Assembly: GCA_963708025.1 (NCBI GenBank)
Contig: CAVPSB010000010.1
Location: 1-64,000, forward strand
Source of the DNA: an uncultured Candidatus Rokubacteria bacterium
GTDB taxonomy: Bacteria; Methylomirabilota; Methylomirabilia; Rokubacteriales; DASRDR01
Direction: 5' to 3'
Length of the DNA: 64,000 nt
Shown here one piece after another: positions 39,774-58,554 of the stretch (position 1 is the stretch's first letter; every line of letters begins with the position of its first letter). The translations under genes were made by a program, and so were the position numbers. The notes beneath the pieces were generated by a model. The model saw nothing but the letters and a program-made list of their open reading frames with translations, made no database searches and was not told the origin of the DNA.

Positions 39774-40283
39774 ATGACGACGAGACGGAAGCTCCTCGGG
39801 TACGGCGTGACTCTCGGGTGGATGGGCGGATGGGTGGGAGCCTTTGGCGGCGTTGCGGCCTCGCTGGCCCGGGCCCAGGGCAAGACGGCCAGCGCCTTCG
39901 AGGTCGCCCGGTCCGACGCCGAGTGGCGGAAGCGCCTCACGCCGCAGCAGTTCCACGTGCTCCGGCAGCACGGCACCGAGCGGGCGGGGAGCAGTCCCCT
40001 CGACAAGGAGTACGCCAAGGGGGTCTACCACTGCGCGGGGTGCGACCTCCCGCTCTTCTCGTCGGAGACGAAGTTCGACAGCGGCACCGGCTGGCCGAGC
40101 TTCTGGGCGCCCATCGAGAACGCCATCGGGACCACCGCGGACCGGAGTCTCTTCATGGTCCGGACGGAGGTCCACTGCCGGCGGTGTGGCGGGCACCTCG
40201 GGCACGTGTTCGAGGACGGGCCCAAGCCGACCGGACTCCGCTACTGCATGAACGGCCTCGCGCTCGCTTTCAGGAGGGCCTGA
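39774..40283 (+). CDS. msrB: peptide-methionine (R)-S-oxide reductase, exported (twin-arginine-like leader)
   Basis: [37 protein letters not shown]-terminus. Confidence 0.95.
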
Positions 40284-40286
40284 TCC

Positions 40287-40902
40287 ATGCGATCCGTGGT
40301 GTTGCTCCGGCTCGCGGTGGTGGCGAGCCTGGTCGCCTTCACGGCGGTCGCCGCCGACGCGCAAGAGCTGGCCAAGGCCACGTTCGCCGGCGGCTGCTTC
40401 TGGTGCATGGAGCCCCCGTTCGACAAGCTCGACGGGCGTCGTCTCGACCACCTCGGGGTACACGGGCGGCCAGAAGGCGAACCCGACCTACGAGCAGGTG
40501 TCGGCCGGCACCACCGGCCATGCCGAGGCGGTGGAGATCGTCTACGATCCGCGCAAGGTCACCTACGCCCAGCTCCTGGAAGTCTTCTGGCACAACATCG
40601 ACCCGACCACGCCGGACCGGCAGTTCTGCGACATCGGCAGCCAGTACCGCGCCGCGATCTTCTTCCACGACGAGACCCAGCGCCGGCTCGCCGAGGAGTC
40701 GAAGGGGGCGGTGGCCCAGCGCCTCCGGCAGCCGGTCGTGACCCAGGTCGTGCTGGCCGCCACGTTCTACGTCGCGGAGGAATACCACCAGGACTTCTAC
40801 AAGAAGAACCCGATCCGCTACCAGGTCTACCGGACGGGCTGCGGCCGCGACCGGCGCCTGGAGGCGCTCTGGGGGAAGGCGACCTCGGCCGCGCCGCGCT
40901 GA
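40287..40902 (+). CDS. msrA: peptide-methionine (S)-S-oxide reductase with signal peptide (frameshift near 40437)
   Basis: FAGGCFWCME, GHAEAV, GSQYR, AEEYHQDFY. Confidence 0.95.
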
Positions 40903-45829: not shown

Positions 45830-46273
45830 CTAGCGCTCCAGGGGATAGCCGCGGCTGGCCCAGCCGGGGAAGCCGTCCTCCAGGCCCTGGATCTCCTCCA
45901 TGCCGAGGCCGGCCAGGTAGCGATAGGCCGCTTCCAGCTCGTCCTTGGGGCAGGCGCAGTAGAGGATGATGCGGCCGGGGGGCAGATACCCCGCGCGCCG
46001 GCGGAGCTCGCGGATCGGGATCGAGCGGGCACCCGGCAAGCGCCCCTGGCGGAAGTCGTCGGCGGGGCGGAGATCGATCAGCATTGGCCGGGCGCCGCGG
46101 TCGAGGAGCGCCTTGAGATCCGGCGCCGAGATGACCGGCATGGGCCCCGCCGGGGACCCGTGGCCGGCCGCCGCCGGCCCGGCCAGGGCGGCCACCAGGG
46201 AAGCCAGCATCCAGCAGATCCGAAGCCGGCCGGCGCGGGGCCGCGGGCAACGCTCGGAGATCGAAGCGGCCAT
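45830..46273 (-). CDS. exported rhodanese-like protein (Cys form, LYCACP)
   Basis: Signal-like N-terminus; LIDLRP..F..GRLPGARSIP; IILYCACP; LEDGFPGW. Confidence 0.85.
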   Translation of the reverse strand: MAASISERCPRPRAGRLRICWMLASLVAALAGPAAAGHGSPAGPMPVISAPDLKALLDRGARPMLIDLRPADDFRQGRLPGARSIPIRELRRRAGYLPPGRIILYCACPKDELEAAYRYLAGLGMEEIQGLEDGFPGWASRGYPLER

Positions 46274-47565: not shown

Positions 47566-47856
47566 TCAGGCGGTGGGAGGGGCGCGGGAGCCGGACGGGA
47601 GCGCCGGACGGGTGGCCCGGGCAGGATTGCCGGGGGCCAGCGAGATCGGCCGCGCGTGGAGCGATACGCCTGCGTCCGGGGCGTCGATGATGATCGCCCC
47701 TGCGGGGGCCATCACCATGCGCTCGAGCGAGCACTGCTCGTTGTAGATACCGGCCGCCGCGCCCCCGTGCTCGTGGACGACGGGAAGCTCGGCCCCGACC
47801 CGCACCAGGGCCAGGACGACGACCAGCCACGGAACTACGCGAGAAGTGGATCGCAT
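47566..47856 (-). CDS. DUF2946-like leader peptide with RAPP motif
   Basis: Hydrophobic N-terminus, HEH..C, Pro/Ala spacer, C-terminal SRAPPTA. Confidence 0.75.
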   Translation of the reverse strand: MRSTSRVVPWLVVVLALVRVGAELPVVHEHGGAAAGIYNEQCSLERMVMAPAGAIIIDAPDAGVSLHARPISLAPGNPARATRPALPSGSRAPPTA

Positions 47857-47911: not shown

Positions 47912-48403
47912 TTACACGAGATCCTTGCCGGTCGTCGCCATGGTGAGCCGGCCGTGCTTCACCCCGCGCGTCGCGATGAGGCGATCGGCGAGGTCGTGGA
48001 TCGTCTGGGCCCGGCCCCGGACGACCAGCACTTCCAGGCAGTGGTCATGGTCCAGGTGCACGTGGAGCGACGAGACGATCTCACTGTAGTGGTCGTGCTG
48101 GGCGGCCGTGAGCCGGCCGGGCAGAAGCCGGGCGTGGTGATCGTAGACGAGCGTGATCGTGGCGACCGTCTCGGCGTTCCCGGCCTTCCATTCGGCCTCC
48201 ACGAGCCCCTGACGCACGAGGTCGCGAATCGCCTCCGAGCGGTTCGGGTAGGCCCGGCGTGTCACCCACGCGTCCAGGCGGCCGAGGAGTCGCCGGTCCA
48301 TCGCGACGCCGAACCGACGGAGCCCGGCCCCCCCATCGTCGCGCGGCGGCGAGCGCCTCCTGGCGGGTCCGGGCCCGGCGTCGGGCGAGCGCCGGCTCTT
48401 CAC
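47912..48403 (-). CDS. nikR: nickel-responsive regulator NikR
   Basis: RFGVAM, NRSEAIRDL, YDHH, QHD, HVHLDHDHCLE. Confidence 0.95.
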   Translation of the reverse strand: MKSRRSPDAGPGPARRRSPPRDDGGAGLRRFGVAMDRRLLGRLDAWVTRRAYPNRSEAIRDLVRQGLVEAEWKAGNAETVATITLVYDHHARLLPGRLTAAQHDHYSEIVSSLHVHLDHDHCLEVLVVRGRAQTIHDLADRLIATRGVKHGRLTMATTGKDLV

Positions 48404-48434
48404 CGCGCGCGCCTTCTATCCCGGCTCCCGGGGG

Positions 48435-48899
48435 TCATGGCCGGGCGGCCTCACGGCCCAGGAAGGCGGCGTAGTCGCGCTCGTGGTTCGGCACGTAGCC
48501 CGACACCGCCCCCTCCGTGGGATGGCCCTGCTCGATCCAGCCGGGGATTCCCTCGTCCAGGATCCGGAGGTTCCGGTACCCCTTCGCGTAGAGCGCCTCG
48601 TAGGCCAGACTGGCCAACCGGTGGGGGCACGCTCAGTAGAGGACGACCGGGACGTTGCGCGGCAGGATCACGTCGCGCTCCCTGATCGTGGAGAGCGGGA
48701 ACGACTCCGCCCCCTTGATGTGCCGCGCCCGGTACTCCTCGCGCGTTCGCACGTCGACGAGCACGACCGGCGCTCCCCGGGCCTGGAGGCGGATCACCTC
48801 GGCTACCTTGATGAAGGTGCGGGTGTCCGACTGGCCCTGCGCCGTTCCGGCCGCGAGCCCCAGCGTGGCGACCAGGAGCGGGATCAGCCTCGTGCGCAT
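48435..48899 (-). CDS. exported rhodanese-like selenoprotein (Sec at codon 89, UGA 48633-48635)
   Basis: Signal peptide, VDVRTREEY..HIKGA, VVLY-UGA-ACP, continues in frame to LDEGIPGW; SECIS-like hairpin follows the UGA. Confidence 0.85.
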
Positions 48900-49027
48900 C
48901 GAGTTCCTCCTCGTTTCAGTTGGTAACCTCCCGCCCCCCCCCAGCCCCCCTCCCCCACCCGTTGGACGGCCTTCGGCCTGTGGCGGGGGGAGGGGGGAGC
49001 CGGAGGACCCCATTCCTTCACACGCTC

Positions 49028-49984
49028 TCAGTGGCGGTGGCTGGTGGGCGCACCGCCCCACTCGAAGGACGCCTGCCGGGACCGGGCGAATCGCCCCGCC
49101 ACCGCCGGCATGAGGCGCATCGTGGGCGTCCCGATGGTGACCGTGACCCGCTCCGTGCCGTCGGGCAGGGTCACGTCCGCCCCGTAGTGAAAGCCCTGGT
49201 GGCCCAGCATCGGGACGAGCCGCGTCCGCTTCGGGGCCTGCTTCCCGGCGTGGATGGTGGCGGCGACCGGCAGGTAGGGGATGGGCTCGCCCGACTGGAC
49301 ATCGGCGATGAACACCATGAGGTGTCCTGGCCGCCGGGCCCCGGCGCTCTGGCCGGCGGCCCTGGGTGCGTTCGGGTGGCCGGTCGCGTCGTCGTACTCC
49401 ACCCGCACCCGGACGTCGCCGAGGACCTGCTCGCGAACCGGCGGCCCCGCGTGGTCGTGCCCCTGGCCGTCTCCCGCGCCGAGGCTCTTGAGGAACGCCA
49501 CCAGGTCGATCAGCTCGCTGACCGTCAGGCTCTCCCGGTAGTCGGGCATGATCGAGAGCCCGTCGGGCCCGGCATACCCGGGGCCTTCGAGGATGACGGC
49601 GTTGGGGTTGAGGATCGACTCCGCGAAGTATTCGGCGGGGTGATGGCCGCCCATCGCGGTCAGCTCGGGGCCCACCTCGTCCGACGGCGTCGGCGCCTCC
49701 GGGAAGCCCGCCCCCTTGACGGGGTGGCACTTGTAGCACTCGAGGTTCGCGAACACGTCACGCCCCGCCTTCGCGTCGCCCGGGGGGAACGCGAAGCGCC
49801 AGCCCGGCGGCACTCCGCCGTGGCGGTGCAGCACATCCATCCCGATCCGGGCGGGAGCCGTGGGGTGCTCGTGAGGCGGGATCCCCGGCGGGTGAGCGTG
49901 GCCCTCCGGCTGCGCGGCGGACCACCGCAGGGTGGCCACCACTACCAGCGCCAGTCCCGTGGCGGTGAGGTGCCGTGCCGTCAT
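49028..49984 (-). CDS. exported cytochrome c fused to a P19/Fe2+-transport-like domain
   Basis: His-rich N-terminus, CYKCH, SIMPDY; C-terminal HLMVFI..EPIPY...LVPMLGHQGFHYGADV. Confidence 0.75.
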   Translation of the reverse strand: MTARHLTATGLALVVVATLRWSAAQPEGHAHPPGIPPHEHPTAPARIGMDVLHRHGGVPPGWRFAFPPGDAKAGRDVFANLECYKCHPVKGAGFPEAPTPSDEVGPELTAMGGHHPAEYFAESILNPNAVILEGPGYAGPDGLSIMPDYRESLTVSELIDLVAFLKSLGAGDGQGHDHAGPPVREQVLGDVRVRVEYDDATGHPNAPRAAGQSAGARRPGHLMVFIADVQSGEPIPYLPVAATIHAGKQAPKRTRLVPMLGHQGFHYGADVTLPDGTERVTVTIGTPTMRLMPAVAGRFARSRQASFEWGGAPTSHRH

Positions 49985-50625
49985 GACGCCGTCCTCCCTG
50001 CCCGATCGGTCGTGAGTCGCGCGTTCCGCGATCGGGTGCGCCACAACAGCCACGCGGCCGCCGAGCCCAGGAGCGCCGCGCCGGCCCCCACCATCGCCGC
50101 GCCCACGCCCCAGGACGCCGCCGCCTCCACCTCCAGCGGGAAGTCGGCGCTCCCGGAGCCCTCCGGGCCCGAGACGTGGACGGTCACCGTCCAGCGCCCC
50201 GGACTCGGCAGCCTGAGATCGGCCACGTGGCTGATCCCGCCGGGATCCCGGCCCCGATCCGCCGTGACCGAGACCGGGGCGTCCGCGGCGCCGGCTCGCC
50301 CGGCGCTGACGCGCACGACCGCGTCGGGGACCGGGCGAAAGTTGCCCGGCCGCATCACGGTGACCGTGAGCTGACACGCGTCGGTCCGCGGCCGCTTGGG
50401 CTGGGTCCACGCCATGAGGACGTAGGGCCCGGCCCGGTCGTTGAGCTGGAGGACCCCGCTGTGGTCTGCCGAGGCCGGGCCGGAAGCGCCCACCAGGGCC
50501 CCGGCTGCCAGCGCGACCAGCAGGACGCCGCGTGCCAGCGCCGGGAAAGAAGTGCGGGCGCCTCCCCTTCCCATCGCGCGGCCTCCGCGGGTCGGGGGGG
50601 CTCGCGCCAGCGGGCCCGCCTTCAT
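49981..50625 (-). CDS. YtkA/FixH-like exported protein with C-terminal membrane anchor
   Basis: Signal peptide, HVADLRLPSPGRWTVTVHVSGPEG, terminal TM helix. Confidence 0.65.
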   Translation of the reverse strand: MKAGPLARAPPTRGGRAMGRGGARTSFPALARGVLLVALAAGALVGASGPASADHSGVLQLNDRAGPYVLMAWTQPKRPRTDACQLTVTVMRPGNFRPVPDAVVRVSAGRAGAADAPVSVTADRGRDPGGISHVADLRLPSPGRWTVTVHVSGPEGSGSADFPLEVEAAASWGVGAAMVGAGAALLGSAAAWLLWRTRSRNARLTTDRAGRTAS

Positions 50626-51014
50626 GACGCCGGTCGGAGCCGGAAGCCGAAGTCGCTCTCGACGACGTGGCCGTCAACGGAGAGGACGCGGAACTTGACC
50701 GTGTAAGCGCCGGGCGCCAGCGGCCGCAAGCCGACGGAGAGCCGCTTGGGATCGTCCGGCCCCACCGCGGCGTTCCCGGCGTCAACCCGCGCGCCGCCGG
50801 CGTCCCACACCGAGATGGTGGCGAACTGCGGCTCCAGCCGCTCGCTGAACCAGAGCTGGACCCGGTCGGGGGCCTTGACGAGCACCGCCCGCCGGGCGGG
50901 GATCGACTTGACGAGCATCGCGTGGGTCCAGCCCGAGACCGGAACGAGCGCCAGCGCCAGCCAGACCAGGAACCTCACCGCGACGACGAGGCGGGCAGGG
51001 AACATCCTGCTCAT
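50622..51014 (-). CDS. copC: copper resistance protein CopC
   Basis: HAMLVKSIP, LWFSERLE, FRVLSVDGH. Confidence 0.9.
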   Translation of the reverse strand: MSRMFPARLVVAVRFLVWLALALVPVSGWTHAMLVKSIPARRAVLVKAPDRVQLWFSERLEPQFATISVWDAGGARVDAGNAAVGPDDPKRLSVGLRPLAPGAYTVKFRVLSVDGHVVESDFGFRLRPAS

Positions 51015-52047: not shown

Positions 52048-52623
52048 CTACCGCCGAGCGGGCGGAAACTCCGCCTCGCTTCGTGACTCGGGGCAGCCGA
52101 AGCTCCCGACCAGGCCCTTCCGGGTGACGGCGCCGGCGAGCTTCACCGGGCTGCGGTCCTCGGCGCCCGCGACGTGCCCGGCCGGGTTGCAGCTGAAGGT
52201 CAGGTCGACCGGCACGGTGTTGACCGTGCCGTGGATGCGGAAGCTGTAGGTGGTGGCGACCGTCGGGAAGAAGAACGCCTCGTAGTGCCCCGGGGATCGG
52301 AAGGCCGGATAGAAGTCGAAGGTCCGGGCGGCCGGGCCGGCCTTGACCTCGACCTTCAGGCTCTTCTCGAGCCCCTCCACCGGCTTGATGTTCGGCGCCC
52401 GCGAGTCCATGGGGTTGGCCGGGTCGGGGACCCAGACGAAGAGGTCCACGCCGCTCTTGTCCCCGGTGAAGACCGGCTCGTTCAGGAATCCGACCACGAA
52501 GAGGTAGTCGGCCGTCCCGATCTGGAAGAGCTGGCGCTGGTGAGCGCCGGCGATCGGCGAGACGCAGAGCGACAGCACGGCGGTGAGGGTGACGAGAGCC
52601 AGCAGTCGGCGGAGAGACATCAT
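52048..52623 (-). CDS. exported hypothetical protein (N-terminal His after signal peptide)
   Basis: AGA-HQRQ, VVGFLNEP, GHYEAFFFPT. Confidence 0.7.
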   Translation of the reverse strand: MMSLRRLLALVTLTAVLSLCVSPIAGAHQRQLFQIGTADYLFVVGFLNEPVFTGDKSGVDLFVWVPDPANPMDSRAPNIKPVEGLEKSLKVEVKAGPAARTFDFYPAFRSPGHYEAFFFPTVATTYSFRIHGTVNTVPVDLTFSCNPAGHVAGAEDRSPVKLAGAVTRKGLVGSFGCPESRSEAEFPPARR

Positions 52624-54504
52624 GAGACCTCCTGTCCGGCGTTCCGGCCGGAGCCCGGGTCGAGGGGTTCGAGGACGACCGGCGCGCCGGACAGGGCGCG
52701 CCGGCTGCGGCGGAGCAGGCCCGCGGTGAGCGTGACGATGGCCACCGCGGCGATCGCCATCGGCAGGTCCAGCGGCGCCGGTGGGCCGGCCGCCAGGCTG
52801 CGGTGGTGCCCGGCCGGGACGGCGCCCGCCAGGCGAAGCGTGAAGCGGTCGTTGAGGTCATAGGCCCCGTCCCGCTGGACGACCACGCGGCCGCTCCAGG
52901 TGCCCTCCATGCCGAGGAGCGCCTCCATGGTGACGAACGAGCCGGCCGAGGCGCGGCTCAGGGTCAGGACGAGGGGGCCGCCGTGGGCGTGCGGCGGCGT
53001 GAGCTGGACCAGCGCGGCGGTGGCGTCGGCGAGCGGCCGCCCCGCGCGGTCGGTCACGGCGACCCGGATGGTGTTGCGGCCGGGACTCAGGGAGGCGACC
53101 TCCACGGAGACGCGCGCATCGTCGACCTCCCGCTCGTGACGGAAGGCGGCGACCGGCGCCGGGCCGTGGGACGGCGAGGTGGTTCCCAGGAGGGCCGCCA
53201 GCAGCAACGCCAGGACGCCCAGCCCCGCTTCCAGCCGGAGCGTCCGGCGGAACCGTCGGGCGACCCGCTCGCCGCGCGCGCTCGCGCGGCCGGCGGCCTC
53301 GACGGCGCGGGGGTGCACCCGGAACTGGTGGTAGCCACCCAGGCCCAGCATGGCGGCCATGACCAGGAGCTTCGCGAGGAGCCAGCGACCGTATGCCGTC
53401 CCGATCAGGTCACCGGCCGACGCCAGGTGGAGCCGGGCGAGATAGAGACCGCTCAGGCCGAGACTGCCGACGGCGACGGTGGCCAGGACGGAAAAGGCGG
53501 GGATCGCCTGCACCAGCGCCGCCGCCGGGGCCACAGGGCGGAAGGAGCGCCAGAACAGCGAGGCGAAGTAGGCGAGGCCGGCAACCCACAGCGCCACCCC
53601 GAGCCGGTGGAGGAGCTCGGCGCCCAGGGCCAGGCCGCGCCAGCTCGTGGCCGCCGCGCCGTGACTGAGGAGTCCACCCGCCAGGATGGCGAGCAGGACG
53701 CACCCGATGCCGACATACCGGGGCCAGCGCCGGTGCCGGGCGCCGCGGGCCTGGAAGGCGACCACCGCGGCCAGCAGGGCGGCCAAGAGGAGCTCGAGCG
53801 TGGCCAGCCGGCCCACCGCGGTGGGCAGGAGGGCGATCGCGCCGGCGAGCCAGCCGGAACCGGCGCCAACCTGACCGGCCCGGGCGCCGAACGCCGCCGC
53901 CTCGCCGGCCGCCATCGCGCCGATCGATGCCGACAGGAGCCCGGATGGGGCTTCCGCCGCCGCCGGACCGAAGACCAGGGGGCCGATGAGCGCGCCGAGC
54001 AGGGCGAGCGCCCCGAGCATGGCGACCCAGCGCCCGATGGCGACGAGGGGCGGGGTGGCCGCGGCCAGATCCCGGCCCGGTGGCGGGGCGGGAGCCACCG
54101 TGCCGACGGCGAAGCCGTGCGCTCCCTCGGTCACGTGCCCGTCGTCGGCGGACAGGACCCGCCAGGCGACGGTGTAGGGGCCGGGCTCGAGCTCCGGGAC
54201 GGCCAGGCGGTAGAGCCACGGATCAGCCGGGTCGACGCGCGGAGGACCGGTGTCGACCGGCCGCCCGCGCGTGTTGAACGACCTGCAGCGAGCTGGCGCG
54301 CGGCTCCACGCGCTCGCTGAAGCGGATGGTGATCTCCCGTGGACTCTCGCCGACGACGGCGTTGGCCTCCGGCACCATGGCGACCGGCACGGCGTGAGCA
54401 AAGGCCAGGCGGGGCGCGGCCAGGAGGAGCGCCACCGCCAGGGCTGACGTGCTCGCGCGCACGCCGGACGTGAACCGGCGACCACGAGCCACTCTGCCGC
54501 GCAC
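52620..54504 (-). CDS. CopC-CopD-YtkA fusion (YcnJ-like copper uptake protein), frameshift near 54280
   Basis: AFA-HAVPV, WRVLSADDGH, LSHGAA, LHRLGVALWVAGL, TAYGRWLLAKL; GGAGG 6 nt before GTG. Confidence 0.85.
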
Positions 54505-54629
54505 TCGACGCCTCCTTTTTCGGCCGGGGGGAGCCCGCCGAAGAGGGATCTCCGGCCATCCCGGGATCGATGACGACCCGCACCCGTCCCGGGGGAAGCC
54601 GCGGGACGACGAGCAGGCGCCGGAAGGGG

Positions 54630-55196
54630 CTAGACGGAGCGGGCGGGAGGCGCGCGTCCCTGGTCGGGACGGAGCGCCGGAGCGGCCAGGAGGGGGTCGG
54701 CGAGCATGACGAGCAACGGACCCACGTCAGCGGGCGCGTCGGCGGTGATCTCGGCGGCCGGGGCGTCGCCGTGGACGTGCTGCGCCACGGACAGCACCTG
54801 GCACTGCGCCGCGCCTCGCGGATCGTCGATGTGGTGGACGGAGTGGATCGTGCTCTCGGCGACGAACACGGTCAGCATGGGGATCAGGGCCAGCGTCACG
54901 ACCCGGGGCCACCGGCGGGCGATGGCGCCGGCGAGGGCGAGTCCGGCCACGATCGCCAGCCAGGGTGCGAGCGACGTGGAGGGGCCGGCGATCAGGACCG
55001 GTGGCTCGGATGGGCCCGAGACGATCGCCGGCGCCGGCCCCGGCTCGGGGTCGTTCACCTCGAGGGCCGGCGGCGACACCGGGGAGAGCGCGGCCCGGCG
55101 GGAATGGCCCTCCGCCGGCTGGAAGCCCACCAGCAGCACCGCCATCCCGCCGAGCAGGACGAGCCCGGTCAGACGCGAAGCGCGGAGGCCCTTCAT
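54630..55196 (-). CDS. extended DUF2946-like leader protein with RAPP motif
   Basis: Signal plus two TM segments, ESTIHSVHH...CQV...QH, C-terminal GRAPPARSV. Confidence 0.75.
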   Translation of the reverse strand: MKGLRASRLTGLVLLGGMAVLLVGFQPAEGHSRRAALSPVSPPALEVNDPEPGPAPAIVSGPSEPPVLIAGPSTSLAPWLAIVAGLALAGAIARRWPRVVTLALIPMLTVFVAESTIHSVHHIDDPRGAAQCQVLSVAQHVHGDAPAAEITADAPADVGPLLVMLADPLLAAPALRPDQGRAPPARSV

Positions 55197-55203
55197 GGCG
55201 CAG

Positions 55204-55232
55204 AGCCTAACGGTGTGGCGCCGCCTTGTCAA
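55204..55232 (-). promoter_or_regulatory. sigma70 promoter giving a probably leaderless mRNA
   Basis: TTGACA-N17-TAGGCT, 7 nt before ATG 55196; no SD. Confidence 0.7.
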
Positions 55233-55235
55233 ACT

Positions 55236-55595
55236 CTAGTCGCACTTCTTGAAGAGGACGACCCACAGCTTGACCGGCCGGTCGCCCTCGTTGCGCGCGT
55301 CGTGCGGCGTGAGGGGAGGAAGGAGCCGGGCGGCCCCGGGCCGCAGCACCTCCCGGCCGGCGTCCGTCACCAGGGTCAGCTCGCCTTCCACCACGATGCC
55401 CAGCTCGGGATCGAGTCCGGTGTGGCGGCCGGACGCCGAGCCCGGGGGGAAGGTGAAGACCGAGACCCGCACCGAGTCGTTGTCCAGGGCGAGTCGCTCC
55501 TCGATCACACCCTGGGAGTCCTGCGCTCTCGCGCCGGAAGCCAGCGTGATCAGCCCGATCAGCGCGCCGAGCACGGCGGCCCACCGGATCGTCAT
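55236..55595 (-). CDS. exported cupin domain protein
   Basis: FPPGSASGRH...ELGIVVEGEL...PHDARN. Confidence 0.85.
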   Translation of the reverse strand: MTIRWAAVLGALIGLITLASGARAQDSQGVIEERLALDNDSVRVSVFTFPPGSASGRHTGLDPELGIVVEGELTLVTDAGREVLRPGAARLLPPLTPHDARNEGDRPVKLWVVLFKKCD

Positions 55596-55975
55596 GGTGA
55601 CCTGTCCTTCCTGATGGCCGTGACGAGGAGGCGACCGTCCTGCGCCTTCAGCGTGAACCGGACGGGATCGCCGGGGGAGAGCCCTTCCAGGAGCTTCTCG
55701 CTGGCGGCGTGGAACGGCATGGTCATGCCCTCCATCAGGTCGGGGATGTCCTCGTGGGTGAGCCAGACGACGCCGGAATCGCGCTGGACGAGGCGGACGA
55801 TGCCGCGAGCCGTCCAGGCGCCGTCAGCGACGCGCGGCTGGGCGGCCTCTCGCACCGTCGCGAGCTCCTGGCGGAGCTGGCGGACCTCGCGGGCCCACCA
55901 GAGATAGCCGCCGCCCAGCCCGAGCACCAGCGCGACATCGACCAGGAGCACCACCTTCCAGAGGCGCATCGTCAT
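55592..55975 (-). CDS. CusF-like copper-binding protein, membrane anchored
   Basis: LTHEDIPDLMEGMTMPF...GDPVRFTL. Confidence 0.85.
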   Translation of the reverse strand: MTMRLWKVVLLVDVALVLGLGGGYLWWAREVRQLRQELATVREAAQPRVADGAWTARGIVRLVQRDSGVVWLTHEDIPDLMEGMTMPFHAASEKLLEGLSPGDPVRFTLKAQDGRLLVTAIRKDRSP

Positions 55976-56123
55976 TCGGGCCGGGGGGGAGCTCCGCGCT
56001 CCATCCGGATCGCCGCGGCGCCTCGGGCCTGCAGCCCTCGGGACCCCACGTCCTTCCGGTGGCCCGGACCCCCCCTCCGGGTCTTTCGTCGCTGACGCTT
56101 CCGCGGCAATGGCTTCGAGCGTC

Positions 56124-58158
56124 TCAGTGGACGTGCTCGGCGGGGGCGGGGACCCGCTCCGGCTCGCTGGCGAGCCGCTGGACCTGGGCCACGAGGCGCG
56201 CGGGATCGCTCCAGCCGTCGCCCTGGGCCGGGCTCCAGCGAGCCCGGACGTAGCCCTGGCGGTCGATCAGGAACTCCAGGTGATCCGGGGGCGCCTCTTC
56301 CGGCTCGGGACGCAGGCGCCGATAGGCCTCGGCGGCCTCGGCGGCGCCGTCCACCGCGATCGGGAAGGCAACCAGTCGATCGTCGAGCTCGCGATAGACG
56401 TTGCGCCCGGGCCGGACCGGGACGCCGAGGACCTCCGCGCCGGCGCGGAGGATCGGGCCGTAGGCCGTGTTGAGCTGGGACAGACGGGGTCCCGACCCGG
56501 GGAGCGTGAAGATCACGAGGACGACCATCCGCCGGCCGCGGTAGTCCTTCAGGTTGCGGGCCTCCCCGACTCCCCGCGTGAAGGTGAAGTCGGGACCGAC
56601 GAGCCAGGGAATGGGCGCGGTCTCCGGGCCCATCGGGCGGGCCTGCTCGGCGGCGGCGAGGATGCGGATGAGGTTGATCGCGTCCCATCGCTGATCGACG
56701 CTCAGCCGATCGGCAAATCCCCGCATGGCGGAGCCCGGGATCCCGTTCGTGAGCCACCAGAACATGTCGCCGGCGGTGTGATCGGCGGCGTGCCGGGCGG
56801 TGAGGTCGGCCGGGCGCGGGCGGAGCCCGGATGCGGCCGGGCCGTCGCCGTAGCCGTGCTCGCCGTGACACACCGCGCACTGGGCCCGGTAGACATCGCC
56901 GCCGTCGGCGATCGACCCGGCGGTGTAGGTCACGCTCGGGCGCAAGTACGTCGTGGGGTAGGCGTTCGACGGCGAGCGGCGGCAGCGCCACCATGACCCC
57001 CGCCGCGGCCACCGCCGCCCCGGCGCCGAGAACCACGGGCCACCGGCGCAACCTCAAGACGGCGGCGAGCAGCGCGGCGACGAGCCCGAGCAGCGCCACC
57101 TGGCTGCCGATCGCCACCCGGGTCTGGACTCCGGGCAGGCTGCGGGTGGCGTCCCAGGACAGCCGATAGGCGAATGGCCAGGTGATCTGATCGTGCCGGG
57201 CGGGCGTCGTCAGCCCGAGCACGGCCACGACCCCGAGGATCGCCACGCCCAGCCCCAGCTCGGCGACGACCTGGCGACGGAGCCGACCGACCACGCGAGC
57301 GGCCCGCCGACCGCCCGCGACGGCCGCCAGGAGCCGGGGCTTCAGGACGAGGTGATTGAGCGCCGCGATCGCGATCAGTGGCAGCAGCAACCCGACCTTG
57401 AGGAGCAGCCACCGGCCGTAGGCGGTGCCGACCAGGGCCGGGAGTGAGTTGACGTGCTCCCAGCTGTTGAAGAGCCCGGTGGCGACGAGCGCGAGGACGC
57501 TGGCCAGGCCGAGGCGCGAGAAGCGCCGGGTGGCGCCCGCCGCCAGGACCGTCCCCGTCGGCTCCGGCAGGCCCCGGGACCGGTGGAGCAGGACGGCCAG
57601 CGGGCCCAGCGCCCCGAGCCACACGCCGGTGGCCAGGAGGTGCACGGCGTCGACCGCGATCGCGGCACCGGGAAGCTCCTGGGCCGACGCGGCGTGGCCG
57701 GCGGCCCCGATGATCGCCAGACTGAGCGCGCTCAGCCCGCCGGCCTGGAGGCGAAGGGCGAGCCAGTCCCGCACGTCGCGCTGCTCGTCGGCCAGGAAGA
57801 GCAGCCCGCCGGCGAGGACGAGCAGGGCCTGGCGGGCCAGCCACACGGCGCCGTACTGCGTCGTCAGCAGGACCGCCCCCAGGGCCGCCGTCGTGAGGCT
57901 CGCCCTCAGGCCCGCCCCGGTGGCCACCGCGGTCTGGCGCCAGAGATCGAGCAGCGAGCAGGCGATCGTGACCGCCAGAGTCCACCGACCGAGGGCGAGG
58001 AGGCGGCGGTCCAGCCGTTCGAGCAGCGCGATCGCGTCGGCGCCGGCGGCCTTCGCCGCCGGCCGGGCCACGAGCACGAGGAACGCGAACACGCCGACGA
58101 GAAGGCTGGCGCCGAGGAACTGGGCCCAGCGAACGGCGACGGCGAACGCTTCCATCAT
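56124..58158 (-). CDS. copD: CopD - cytochrome c - redoxin-fold fusion (frameshift near 56965)
   Basis: GHAAS, VHLLATGVWLG, TAYGRWLLLK; CAVCH..GYGDGP; GPDFTF..LKDYRG...FLIDRQGYVRARW. Confidence 0.85.
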
Positions 58159-58182
58159 CTTGGCATCTGGGGCAATCTCGAG

Positions 58183-58554
58183 CTATTCGGGCGGCTTCAG
58201 CGTGAACCGGTAGTCACCCTGCGTGCGGTGACCGTCCACGGCGAGCACGCTCCAGGTGACCGTGTAGACGCCAGCGGTGAGGGGCGGCAGCCCGACCTGC
58301 AGTAGCCGCCGGTTCCGGGGGTCCACGTGCGAGTCGCCGCGGTCGATCCGCCGGCCGGCGCCGTCGGTCACCGTCACGGCGCTGAAGGTCGGCTCGAGAT
58401 CCCCATCGAACCAGATGCGGACCTCGGTCGGCGCCGTCCGCACGACGGCGCCGACGCGGGGATCCGAACGCTCCGGAAAGGCATGCGCCCCGACTCCGGT
58501 CACGGTGATCATCAGCAACAGCTCGATGATACTCGTGGCGGTGACGAGGCGCAT
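58183..58554 (-). CDS. copC: copper resistance protein CopC
   Basis: GA-HAFPERSDP, IWFDGDLEP, WSVLAVDGH. Confidence 0.9.
   Translation of the reverse strand: MRLVTATSIIELLLMITVTGVGAHAFPERSDPRVGAVVRTAPTEVRIWFDGDLEPTFSAVTVTDGAGRRIDRGDSHVDPRNRRLLQVGLPPLTAGVYTVTWSVLAVDGHRTQGDYRFTLKPPE

Follow-up and report, generated by a model that had tools for sequence, protein, structure and literature searches.

A putative UxC rhodanese selenoprotein, apparently exported and encoded among copper genes in an uncultured Candidatus Rokubacteria bacterium

Background

Selenoproteins of the rhodanese family are, to our knowledge, known only as computational predictions, none of them with an established function; among the Methylomirabilota, a metagenome-assembled genome with 63 predicted selenoproteins is said to have been reported by Deng et al. 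in 2026 (Cell Rep). The gene described here lies in a stretch of 64,000 nucleotides from a member of the same phylum, an uncultured Candidatus Rokubacteria bacterium (GenBank assembly GCA_963708025.1, contig CAVPSB010000010.1, positions 1 to 64,000 of the forward strand; hereafter the window), and was originally predicted from these nucleotides to encode an exported rhodanese-fold selenoprotein with the motif UxC, where U is selenocysteine (Sec). Five rhodanese selenoprotein forms, with the motifs UxxS, UxxG, CxU, UxxG and UxxxxU, make up the list given in a 2026 review (PMC13188914); a UxC rhodanese is not in that list, where UxC occurs only in a thioredoxin-like protein and a Cu/Zn efflux transporter, and it is likewise missing from the forms listed in a 2022 review and in the 2005 Sargasso paper. 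Full-text literature searches returned nothing on a UxC rhodanese, and the supplementary lists of recent selenoprotein surveys may contain such a form. Rhodaneses go unmentioned in the deep-Sep paper, and a paper on the Geobacter ExtH rhodanese was set aside as having no bearing on the UxC family.

The window gene almost certainly belongs to a UxC form of rhodanese selenoprotein that is widespread and uncatalogued, to judge from the loci compared below. Besides its wide distribution, three traits distinguish this form: it looks exported, it has Sec in the canonical catalytic position with a vicinal cysteine, and its motif is the mirror of the catalogued CxU form.

An in-frame TGA codon within a rhodanese domain

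The open reading frame (ORF) listing under translation table 11 gives the gene as two pieces, one ending ...VVLY and the other of 60 residues (48435-48617). The original prediction that the fold continues in frame across the intervening TGA is upheld by Pfam Rhodanese (PF00581), which spans the codon in a single match (residues 33-123; score 63 bits, cut-off 22.2, E 3.8e-17) covering positions 3-101 of the 102 in the profile; one protein is encoded by 48435-48899, not two fragments. It has a single domain and a single putative Sec at codon 89 (VVLY-U-ACPHR), which falls in the column of the catalytic cysteine both in an alignment with a Cys-containing paralog in the window and in a profile alignment with domain 2 of 1yt8 (loop CAGRTR). 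The active-site loop of six residues, U-A-C-P-H-R, is as long as sulfurtransferase loops in the latter alignment. The expected match between VVLY-U-ACP and IILY-C-ACP of the paralog was borne out, with 35% identity over 100 residues and the Cys of IILY-C-ACPKD opposite the TGA.

In an alignment of 35 family members, D49, R51, A64, Y88, residue 89 (Sec or Cys), C91, P92, A99, G107, L114, G117, G120 and W121 are invariant, and H60 and H93 nearly so. A profile search of 1.84 billion representative sequences returned, among its top 150 matches, mostly multi-domain rhodaneses with summed scores and few single-domain Cys forms, and a profile search of the PDB returned generic rhodaneses only, with no structure of the CxCPH type. 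The protein is likely exported, to judge from its N-terminus: a crude heuristic for signal peptides (n-region with basic residues, hydrophobic h-region core, small-x-small site) was passed by 31 of the 35 aligned family members, the other four having short or fragmentary N-termini. A twin-arginine motif is not evident in the N-terminus of the window protein. Seven family members outside the Rokubacteria (L115, L120, L124, L126, L130, L131 and L163) have in common a YPQ[FY]AQQ segment between the signal peptide and the rhodanese domain, which is absent from the window protein.

Conservation of codon 89 among relatives

A match at E <= 1e-20 was found in 43 of 60 relatives, or 41 of 58 after two genomes flagged as unpublished were dropped, and codon 89 is TGA in 40 and TGC in 2 of the 42 orthologs from relatives, a set that leaves out L050 from the unpublished genome G038. 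A scan of genome contigs with the family alignment gave 122 related loci, mostly from Rokubacteria and Methylomirabilota, with others labelled Binatia, Acidiferrales, Entotheonellaceae and Thermodesulfobacteriota; the best 80 of these, which overlap the set of 42 orthologs, have TGA in 77 cases, TGC in 2 and AGA in 1, and the best 13 of 27 metagenome loci, all holding the motif, have TGA in 12 and TGC in 1. Homologs with TGA or a Cys codon at this position, as the original prediction would have them, are therefore at hand in number, and TAA or TAG was found at codon 89 in none of the relatives' orthologs, the best 80 of 122 genome loci or the best 13 of 27 metagenome loci. The true end of the gene varies, being TAG in 6 of 27 orthologs of a second family (described below by its neighbourhood), and the 19 confident ORFs of the window terminate with TGA (9), TAG (8) or TAA (2).

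Cysteine occupies the Sec column in L045, L048, L192, P0004, P0005, P0026 and P0061, and also in the paralog (P0003). The Cys forms occupy three positions in a maximum-likelihood tree built from 35 sequences. P0004 and P0005 are neighbours of the window protein (support 86/76), L045 and L048 (support 100/99) branch from within the Sec forms of a sister genus, and the paralog is set apart. Public protein sets contain five forms that stop at ...VVLY, one with tryptophan at the site and two full-length Cys forms, seven of these eight bearing the Joint Genome Institute name 'rhodanese-related sulfurtransferase'. The tryptophan of P0010 (VVLY-W-ACPHE) probably means that a gene caller read TGA as Trp on that contig. 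Since the UxC rhodanese is present in public protein sets in a form halved at the UGA, pathway inventories of these soil bacteria miss it.

Independent sequence also retains the TGA: contigs assembled from four public runs of four studies cover the codon and the hairpin downstream of it with zero differences, and one of the four has five differences elsewhere across 48487-48901. All four are assembled contigs, and parts of the stretch have no cover in some runs; one run is a metatranscriptomic library, a weak hint of transcription.

Three irregular loci were seen among the relatives. L183, at locus position 1708 of a contig labelled Thermodesulfobacteriota, has AGA (Arg) at the Sec codon and a complete hairpin, while its near relative L163 has TGA; the AGA reflects either a mutation of recent date or an error in the consensus. 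In L179 a TAG lies in frame 16 codons past the TGA, where others have AAG or CAG; L179 is either a pseudogene or the product of a sequencing error. On contig C19 of genome G001 (L084/L136/L195) a Sec rhodanese like that of the window is reduced to its 3' half, which begins at LY-U-ACPHR and shares 75% identity with the window protein. This half gene follows directly on a Cys-type rhodanese (LYCACSP), lies in the interval between CusF and a protein with a PCYCGC motif, and looks like the outcome of a deletion between tandem paralogs.

A candidate SECIS hairpin

The mRNA and the hairpin GGCCA-GUC-UGGCC quoted in the original prediction read exactly so on the minus strand, with nt 21-25 (counted from the U of the UGA) pairing with nt 29-33. 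The consensus for the bacterial selenocysteine insertion sequence (SECIS), as summarised in the 2026 review (PMC13188914), calls for a 3-9-nt loop with G in its first two positions, a 4-16-bp stem, a distance of 16-37 nt from UGA to loop and a minimum free energy (MFE) of <= -7.5 kcal/mol. The window hairpin fits all four published constraints, with a 3-nt loop that has G first and then U (the constraint being worded as G in the first two loop positions), a 5-bp stem, a spacing of 22 nt and -8.8 kcal/mol (nt 16-39). Across 76 distinct Sec-form sequences the first loop position is G without exception (GGG 42, GUU 13, GUG 13, GUC 8), and the MFE is <= -7.5 kcal/mol in 70.

Base pairing is a property of the family as well. 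Over the 76 sequences 85.2% of cells are paired, compared with 27.8-55.3% when the partner is slid by 1-3 columns, and 0 of 500 shuffles reached the observed pairing; both sides change at three of the seven pairs, namely 19-35 (CG 43, UA 4, UG 3, other 26), 24-30 (CG 73, UA 2, UG 1) and 25-29 (CG 51, AU 21, other 4). Among 41 sequences the third codon positions within the stem are invariant at columns 21, 24 and 30 and nearly so at column 33, the entropy at flanking third positions being 0.17-1.7 bits; AGT and TTG, rare codons that make up 3.7% of Ser and 3.9% of Leu, are kept, and CTC, the codon preferred for Leu (52%), is never used in the stem. Pairs have been lost in each of the three Cys forms observed (L045, L048 and L192), mostly through synonymous changes, which leave the amino acids unchanged in L045 and L192 and are joined in L048 by an Ala-to-Ser change at a stem codon. 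The invariant third positions and the loss of pairs in Cys forms point to a probable constraint at the level of RNA.

The hairpin was said to resemble the SECIS of E. coli fdhF, and the likeness is approximate. Each hairpin is located within the coding sequence a short way past the UGA, its apical loop contains G-U, and the string CAG(G)UCUG is common to both; the fdhF loop, however, is GGUC at nt 22-25 (four bases), whereas that of the window is GUC at nt 26-28 (three bases), so that it lies 3-4 nt, or one codon, further from the UGA. The window stem is also shorter and G+C-rich, and the loop is GGG or GUG in the second family's orthologs. The genome's other candidate SECIS elements, those of selD and two CxU rhodanese genes, have loops at about nt 21-29.

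Selenocysteine machinery and the decoding of codon 89

The source assembly (8.17 Mb, 99.67% completeness, 8.18% contamination) contains all of selA, selB, selC and selD, whose presence had been proposed as a check on the prediction. The first two (598 and 372 bits) and the tRNA-Sec gene (76 bits; called by ARAGORN as tRNA-SeC, anticodon TCA) are clustered on contig C32. The selD gene (398 bits; L011, G000:C7:91381-92304) has one in-frame TGA of its own, in ...HGAG-U-ACKLG..., so that the selenophosphate synthetase would itself be a selenoprotein in this genome.

The Sec machinery, the conserved TGA/Cys codon, the constraints on the hairpin and the contigs of the public runs all agree with the selenoprotein originally predicted, and they leave little doubt that the window gene encodes a real Sec-decoded rhodanese. 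During translation, SelB with Sec-tRNA(Sec) would recognise the hairpin starting 17 nt past UGA-89, Sec would be inserted at that codon, and the preprotein would be exported via its putative N-terminal Sec-type signal peptide. If the TGA were instead a genuine stop, the gene would be a pseudogene or encode a fragment of 88 residues, with a relic of a frame downstream. This is how gene callers treat the codon, as the five database proteins ending at ...VVLY illustrate; TGA does serve as a terminator in this genome, and damaged relatives exist, with the TAG of L179 and the missing 5' half in G001. Termination is nevertheless very improbable, for an 88-residue product would be without half of the rhodanese fold, the downstream half is open and conserved in frame in all aligned orthologs (G117, G120 and W121 included), TGA stands at 77 of the 80 loci and is never exchanged for TAA or TAG, whereas true terminators vary, and Cys takes its place in three forms. 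It is barely credible that the UGA is read as Trp, Cys or another standard residue, by a near-cognate tRNA or through reassignment of the codon: TGA ends many genes here, including the Sec rhodanese itself and its orthologs, the genome has the whole Sec machinery and the gene a hairpin as far from the UGA as a SECIS should be, and the hairpin is lost where the codon turns to TGC. The one database protein with W at the site, which would speak for such a reading, is probably the work of a gene caller using another code.

Gene neighbourhood in the window

The features of the locus are collected in Table 1. On the minus strand, in the order of transcription, the genes run CopC, CopD and CusF; a CopC-CopD fusion; an unknown ORF; a YncE-like propeller; CopC; an ORF of 214 residues; a cytochrome c/P19-like gene; the Sec rhodanese; NikR; an ORF of 96 residues; an ABC-3 permease; and the Cys paralog. 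What the original prediction took for a Cu/Ni uptake cluster is clearly a copper island, which may serve uptake or resistance; it has three CopC domains, two CopD domains, CusF and a bona fide NikR. The pair of Sec and Cys rhodaneses on either side of nikR, to which that prediction drew attention, is present but peculiar to this genome, NikR being found by tblastn in 0 of 23 ortholog loci. The ABC-3 permease, the 96-residue ORF, the cytochrome c/P19 gene, the 214-residue ORF and CopC likewise had no tblastn match (E 1e-5) in those 23 loci, the sole matches being YncE in one locus and generic kinase/receiver sequences. A search of the source genome for DUF2282, the bufferin precursor, found no match at 99.67% completeness, and its one copy of VKOR lies on a different contig and not near the Sec rhodanese.

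Table 1. Positions of the putative Sec rhodanese gene, its elements and neighbouring genes in the window
Feature	Position	Strand	Basis or remarks
Coding sequence of the putative Sec rhodanese	48435..48899	-	154 residues and terminal TGA 48437-48435; read-through translation; full-length ortholog alignment
UGA codon 89, predicted Sec, motif LY-U-A-C-P-H	48633..48635	-	TGA/Cys conservation; catalytic-Cys column
Signal-peptide-like N-terminus, residues 1-22, MRTRLIPLLVATLGLAAGTAQG	48834..48899	-	sequence and crude rule
Shine-Dalgarno-like GGAGGA	48905..48910	-	5 nt 5' of ATG (48899-48897)
Candidate SECIS hairpin core GGCCA-GUC-UGGCC	48603..48615	-	nt 21-33 from U of UGA; apical loop GUC 48610-48608
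nikR	47912..48403	-	31 nt downstream of Sec rhodanese; Pfam NikR_C and RHH_1; NF003381 194 bits against cut-off 105
Cys paralog, exported-looking rhodanese, motif LY-C-A-C-P-K	45830..46273	-	start uncertain, ORF extends to 46507
Cytochrome c/P19-like Fe2+/Cu-transport domain fusion, then 214-residue ORF (49981-50625) and CopC (50622-51014)	49028..51014	-	Pfam
Rest of copper island	52620..58554	-	Pfam, tblastn
CopC-CopD fusion	52620-54485	-	Pfam
CusF	55592-55975	-	Pfam
CopD	55972-58158	-	Pfam
CopC	58183-58554	-	Pfam

Other features of the window deserve mention. The ORFs of 96 residues (47566-47856, minus strand) and 214 residues have hydrophobic N-termini and no match in Pfam or NCBIfam. Between the cytochrome c and rhodanese genes, a long inverted repeat of a C-run and a G-run enclosing GGCCGAAGGCC (48925-48995, minus strand; -67.6 kcal/mol over 131 nt, z -1.5) has no T-tract on its 3' side, and the contigs of the public runs seem to break there. 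In the region 39774-40902, on the plus strand, msrB (SelR, 39774-40283) is followed by msrA with a signal-peptide-like start (40287 onward), in which the frame shifts near 40440 such that the GCFWC part lies in one frame and the remaining PMSR domain (40498-40902) in another, owing either to a frameshift or to an assembly error.

Gene neighbourhoods in other genomes

In the sister genus, all ten loci have two genes in divergent orientation on one side of the Sec rhodanese, for a HAMP-adenylate/guanylate cyclase and a DUF2282 precursor, followed by MbnB/DUF692 and DUF2063 genes in nine of the ten, the tenth contig ending at that point. Such a gene set has been described as that of the bufferin copper-binding peptides (PMC12452194). 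Directly downstream of the Sec rhodanese, in 10 of 10 loci, is a gene of the Fur family, the start of which overlaps the rhodanese stop (ATGA or GTGA) in 11 of 11 loci examined, a count that leaves out two further loci of the sister genus. CusF and a second exported rhodanese-like gene adjoin the cluster in nine of ten loci; this second rhodanese (L067-L074), the counterpart of the Cys paralog of the window, has no active-site cysteine (YAGT, YGAT or HAGT) and is presumably catalytically inactive.

A second family has the Sec rhodanese between two TldD/PmbA-like genes in eight of nine loci from relatives and on further contigs, with the downstream gene starting from 1 nt before to 10 nt past the rhodanese stop in 17 of 19 loci, and 19 and at least 22 nt past it in the remaining two. 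Metagenome contigs nearer the window protein have the orders rhodanese-CopC, rhodanese-CopC-Fur and CopD/cytochrome c-CusF-rhodanese-CopC. In three of three Binatia-labelled loci with a hairpin of the window type, a VKOR fused to a WCPHC thioredoxin-like domain is encoded directly upstream, accompanied in one by SCO1/SenC, and an Entotheonellaceae-labelled locus has DUF1775. Copper or redox neighbours come in at least six distinct arrangements. CopC, CopD, CusF, YcnI and SCO1 are proteins that bind copper or transport it, fusions of VKOR to thioredoxin function in the manner of DsbB plus DsbA, and copper stress raises the need for periplasmic disulfide repair. Copper or redox genes appear usually to adjoin the UxC rhodanese, and while the pair flanking nikR is local, the association of UxC with copper and thiol-redox genes is the more general pattern; the periplasmic metal or redox role that the original prediction put forward gains support from independent arrangements with CopC, CusF, Fur and VKOR-thioredoxin.

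Possible functions

The best overall explanation, and a very likely one, is that of a single Sec-decoded, exported rhodanese, for which a selenol/thiol pair in copper handling is proposed. The pair itself is proposed tentatively and a little short of even confidence: Sec-89 and Cys-91 might act as a redox pair cycling via a selenenylsulfide, and the mature protein might work in the periplasm as an oxidoreductase or a carrier of sulfane sulfur in the handling of copper, a suggestion made because each of the 35 aligned sequences has Cys or Sec at positions 89 and 91 and because the mirror motif LY-C-x-U occurs in the same genome. A rather doubtful extension would have a Sec-dependent extracytoplasmic redox enzyme dedicated to copper, which would exchange electrons with membrane modules such as VKOR-thioredoxin, act on copper or on CopC, CusF or bufferin-type peptides (by reducing Cu(II) or repairing copper-damaged periplasmic thiols) and share an expression unit with a metalloregulator, Fur or NikR.

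Two other functions have to be weighed for a real selenoprotein. One is that of an ordinary PspE-like sulfurtransferase, of the thiosulfate:cyanide or thiol type, in which Sec would merely be a better nucleophile, Cys-91 would be non-catalytic and there would be no specific tie to copper. The rhodanese fold, Sec in the catalytic position, a loop of sulfurtransferase length (1yt8 domain 2), weak NCBIfam matches to PspE, GlpE and MoeB/MoeZ rhodanese domains, and the second family without copper neighbours all suit such an enzyme; it is nonetheless unlikely, given that all 35 sequences have Cys-91 and Pro-92 and nearly all have His-93, a conservation that counts against a one-Cys mechanism because such a mechanism does not require it, and given the mirror CxU form in the same genome and the copper or redox neighbours in their various arrangements. 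The other function, quite unlikely, would make the loop Sec-x-Cys-Pro-His a soft-metal site for Cu(I), Ni or Hg in a periplasmic metallochaperone or sensor. No metal-binding rhodanese precedent came out of the PDB profile search, and the VKOR-thioredoxin neighbour suggests thiol redox chemistry instead, although the conserved Sec, Cys and His are classical soft-metal ligands, CusF, CopC, CopD, DUF1775, SCO1/SenC and the bufferin cluster are among the neighbours, and a metalloregulator gene lies directly downstream (NikR here, Fur in the sister genus); moreover, among the selenoproteins listed in the 2026 review (PMC13188914) is a Cu/Zn efflux transporter whose motif is UxC.

Several observations weigh against the Sec-decoded, exported rhodanese with a selenol/thiol pair in copper handling. 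The lone contig from an RNA library is no proof of transcription. Of the 76 sequences, 21 lack pair 22-32 of the hairpin (they read GUCC, which may pair in a shifted register with one bulged base), and the covariation counts represent few independent events because the sequences are related. The hairpin is of small size, and the stability of the 71-nt fold is not unusual (z = -0.04 against shuffles), a measure that is uninformative because the DNA is G+C-rich, and an Rfam scan of 48400-48950 with E up to 10 gave three chance-level matches and no SECIS family. Export leans on a crude rule, not a trained predictor, and the single-sequence AlphaFold2 model (mean predicted local distance difference test score 55.7) is unusable for the geometry of Sec-89, Cys-91 and His-93. 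As for the setting, nikR adjoins the Sec rhodanese in this genome only, and the copper link fails in the second family, whose TldD/PmbA-like neighbours are without a signal peptide.

Significance

The recurrent neighbours of the UxC rhodanese (periplasmic copper proteins, the bufferin cluster, metalloregulators and VKOR-thioredoxin, which forms disulfides) offer a concrete functional setting for a selenoprotein outside the cytoplasm. If the proposal is true, the use of selenium would be tied to copper homeostasis in abundant soil bacteria. The pairing of UxC and CxU forms may amount to an experiment made by nature, to show which of the two residues in a redox motif benefits from selenium.

Comparison with described rhodaneses

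E. coli PspE resembles the window protein as a small, exported, one-domain rhodanese, to which the latter has weak NCBIfam and PDB matches (30.4 and 25.9 bits with the PspE models NF007627 and TIGR02981, below the cut-offs of 102 and 126). PspE is able to support disulfide formation. Unlike the window protein, it has one Cys, no Sec and no CxC. TsoB (NF045694, form 5, UxxxxU) likewise combines a Sec-containing rhodanese domain with a thiol-redox membrane module, to which those relatives of the window gene that lie beside VKOR-thioredoxin are comparable, but it has two Sec residues in a rhodanese/DsbD fusion of 572 positions, whose rhodanese part the window protein matches weakly, at 28.2 bits against a cut-off of 805. 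Forms 1, 2 and 4 of the rhodanese-like selenoproteins (UxxS, UxxG and UxxG; PMC13188914, PMC1088965), which belong to the line of predictions by Zhang and Gladyshev, have PF00581 with Sec and the same logic of a UGA/Cys pair and a SECIS; as far as can be compared by motif, they differ in that the second Cys is absent from the listed motifs.

Nearest of all is the CxU form (form 3, PMC13188914), represented by the best NCBIfam match, the equivalog NF041203 rhodanese_LYCAU ('rhodanese-related (seleno)protein'), on which the window protein scores 44.1 bits and its orthologs L037 and L051 score 50.2 and 43.8 bits, all below the cut-off of 115. Like the window gene, NF041203 describes a selenoprotein with a single rhodanese domain and a [C/U]-x-[C/U]-P loop directly past L-Y. 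The source genome itself has two CxU copies, LYCSU and LYCTU (L034, G000:C2:375322-375636, and L035, G000:C16:195574-195735), with the motif LY-C-S/T-U-P-N-E, an in-frame TGA and, after each TGA, a hairpin whose CGGGU loop is at nt 25-29; they score 81.7 and 58.4 bits on NF041203, also below its cut-off, and the first has a hydrophobic N-terminal extension. The window form has U-x-C followed by P-H and a hairpin sequence unlike that of the CxU copies, and its Sec is first in the loop (L-Y-U-A-C), whereas that of NF041203 is third (L-Y-C-x-U); LYCSU and LYUAC align in register, so that the positions of Sec and Cys are swapped between the two forms.

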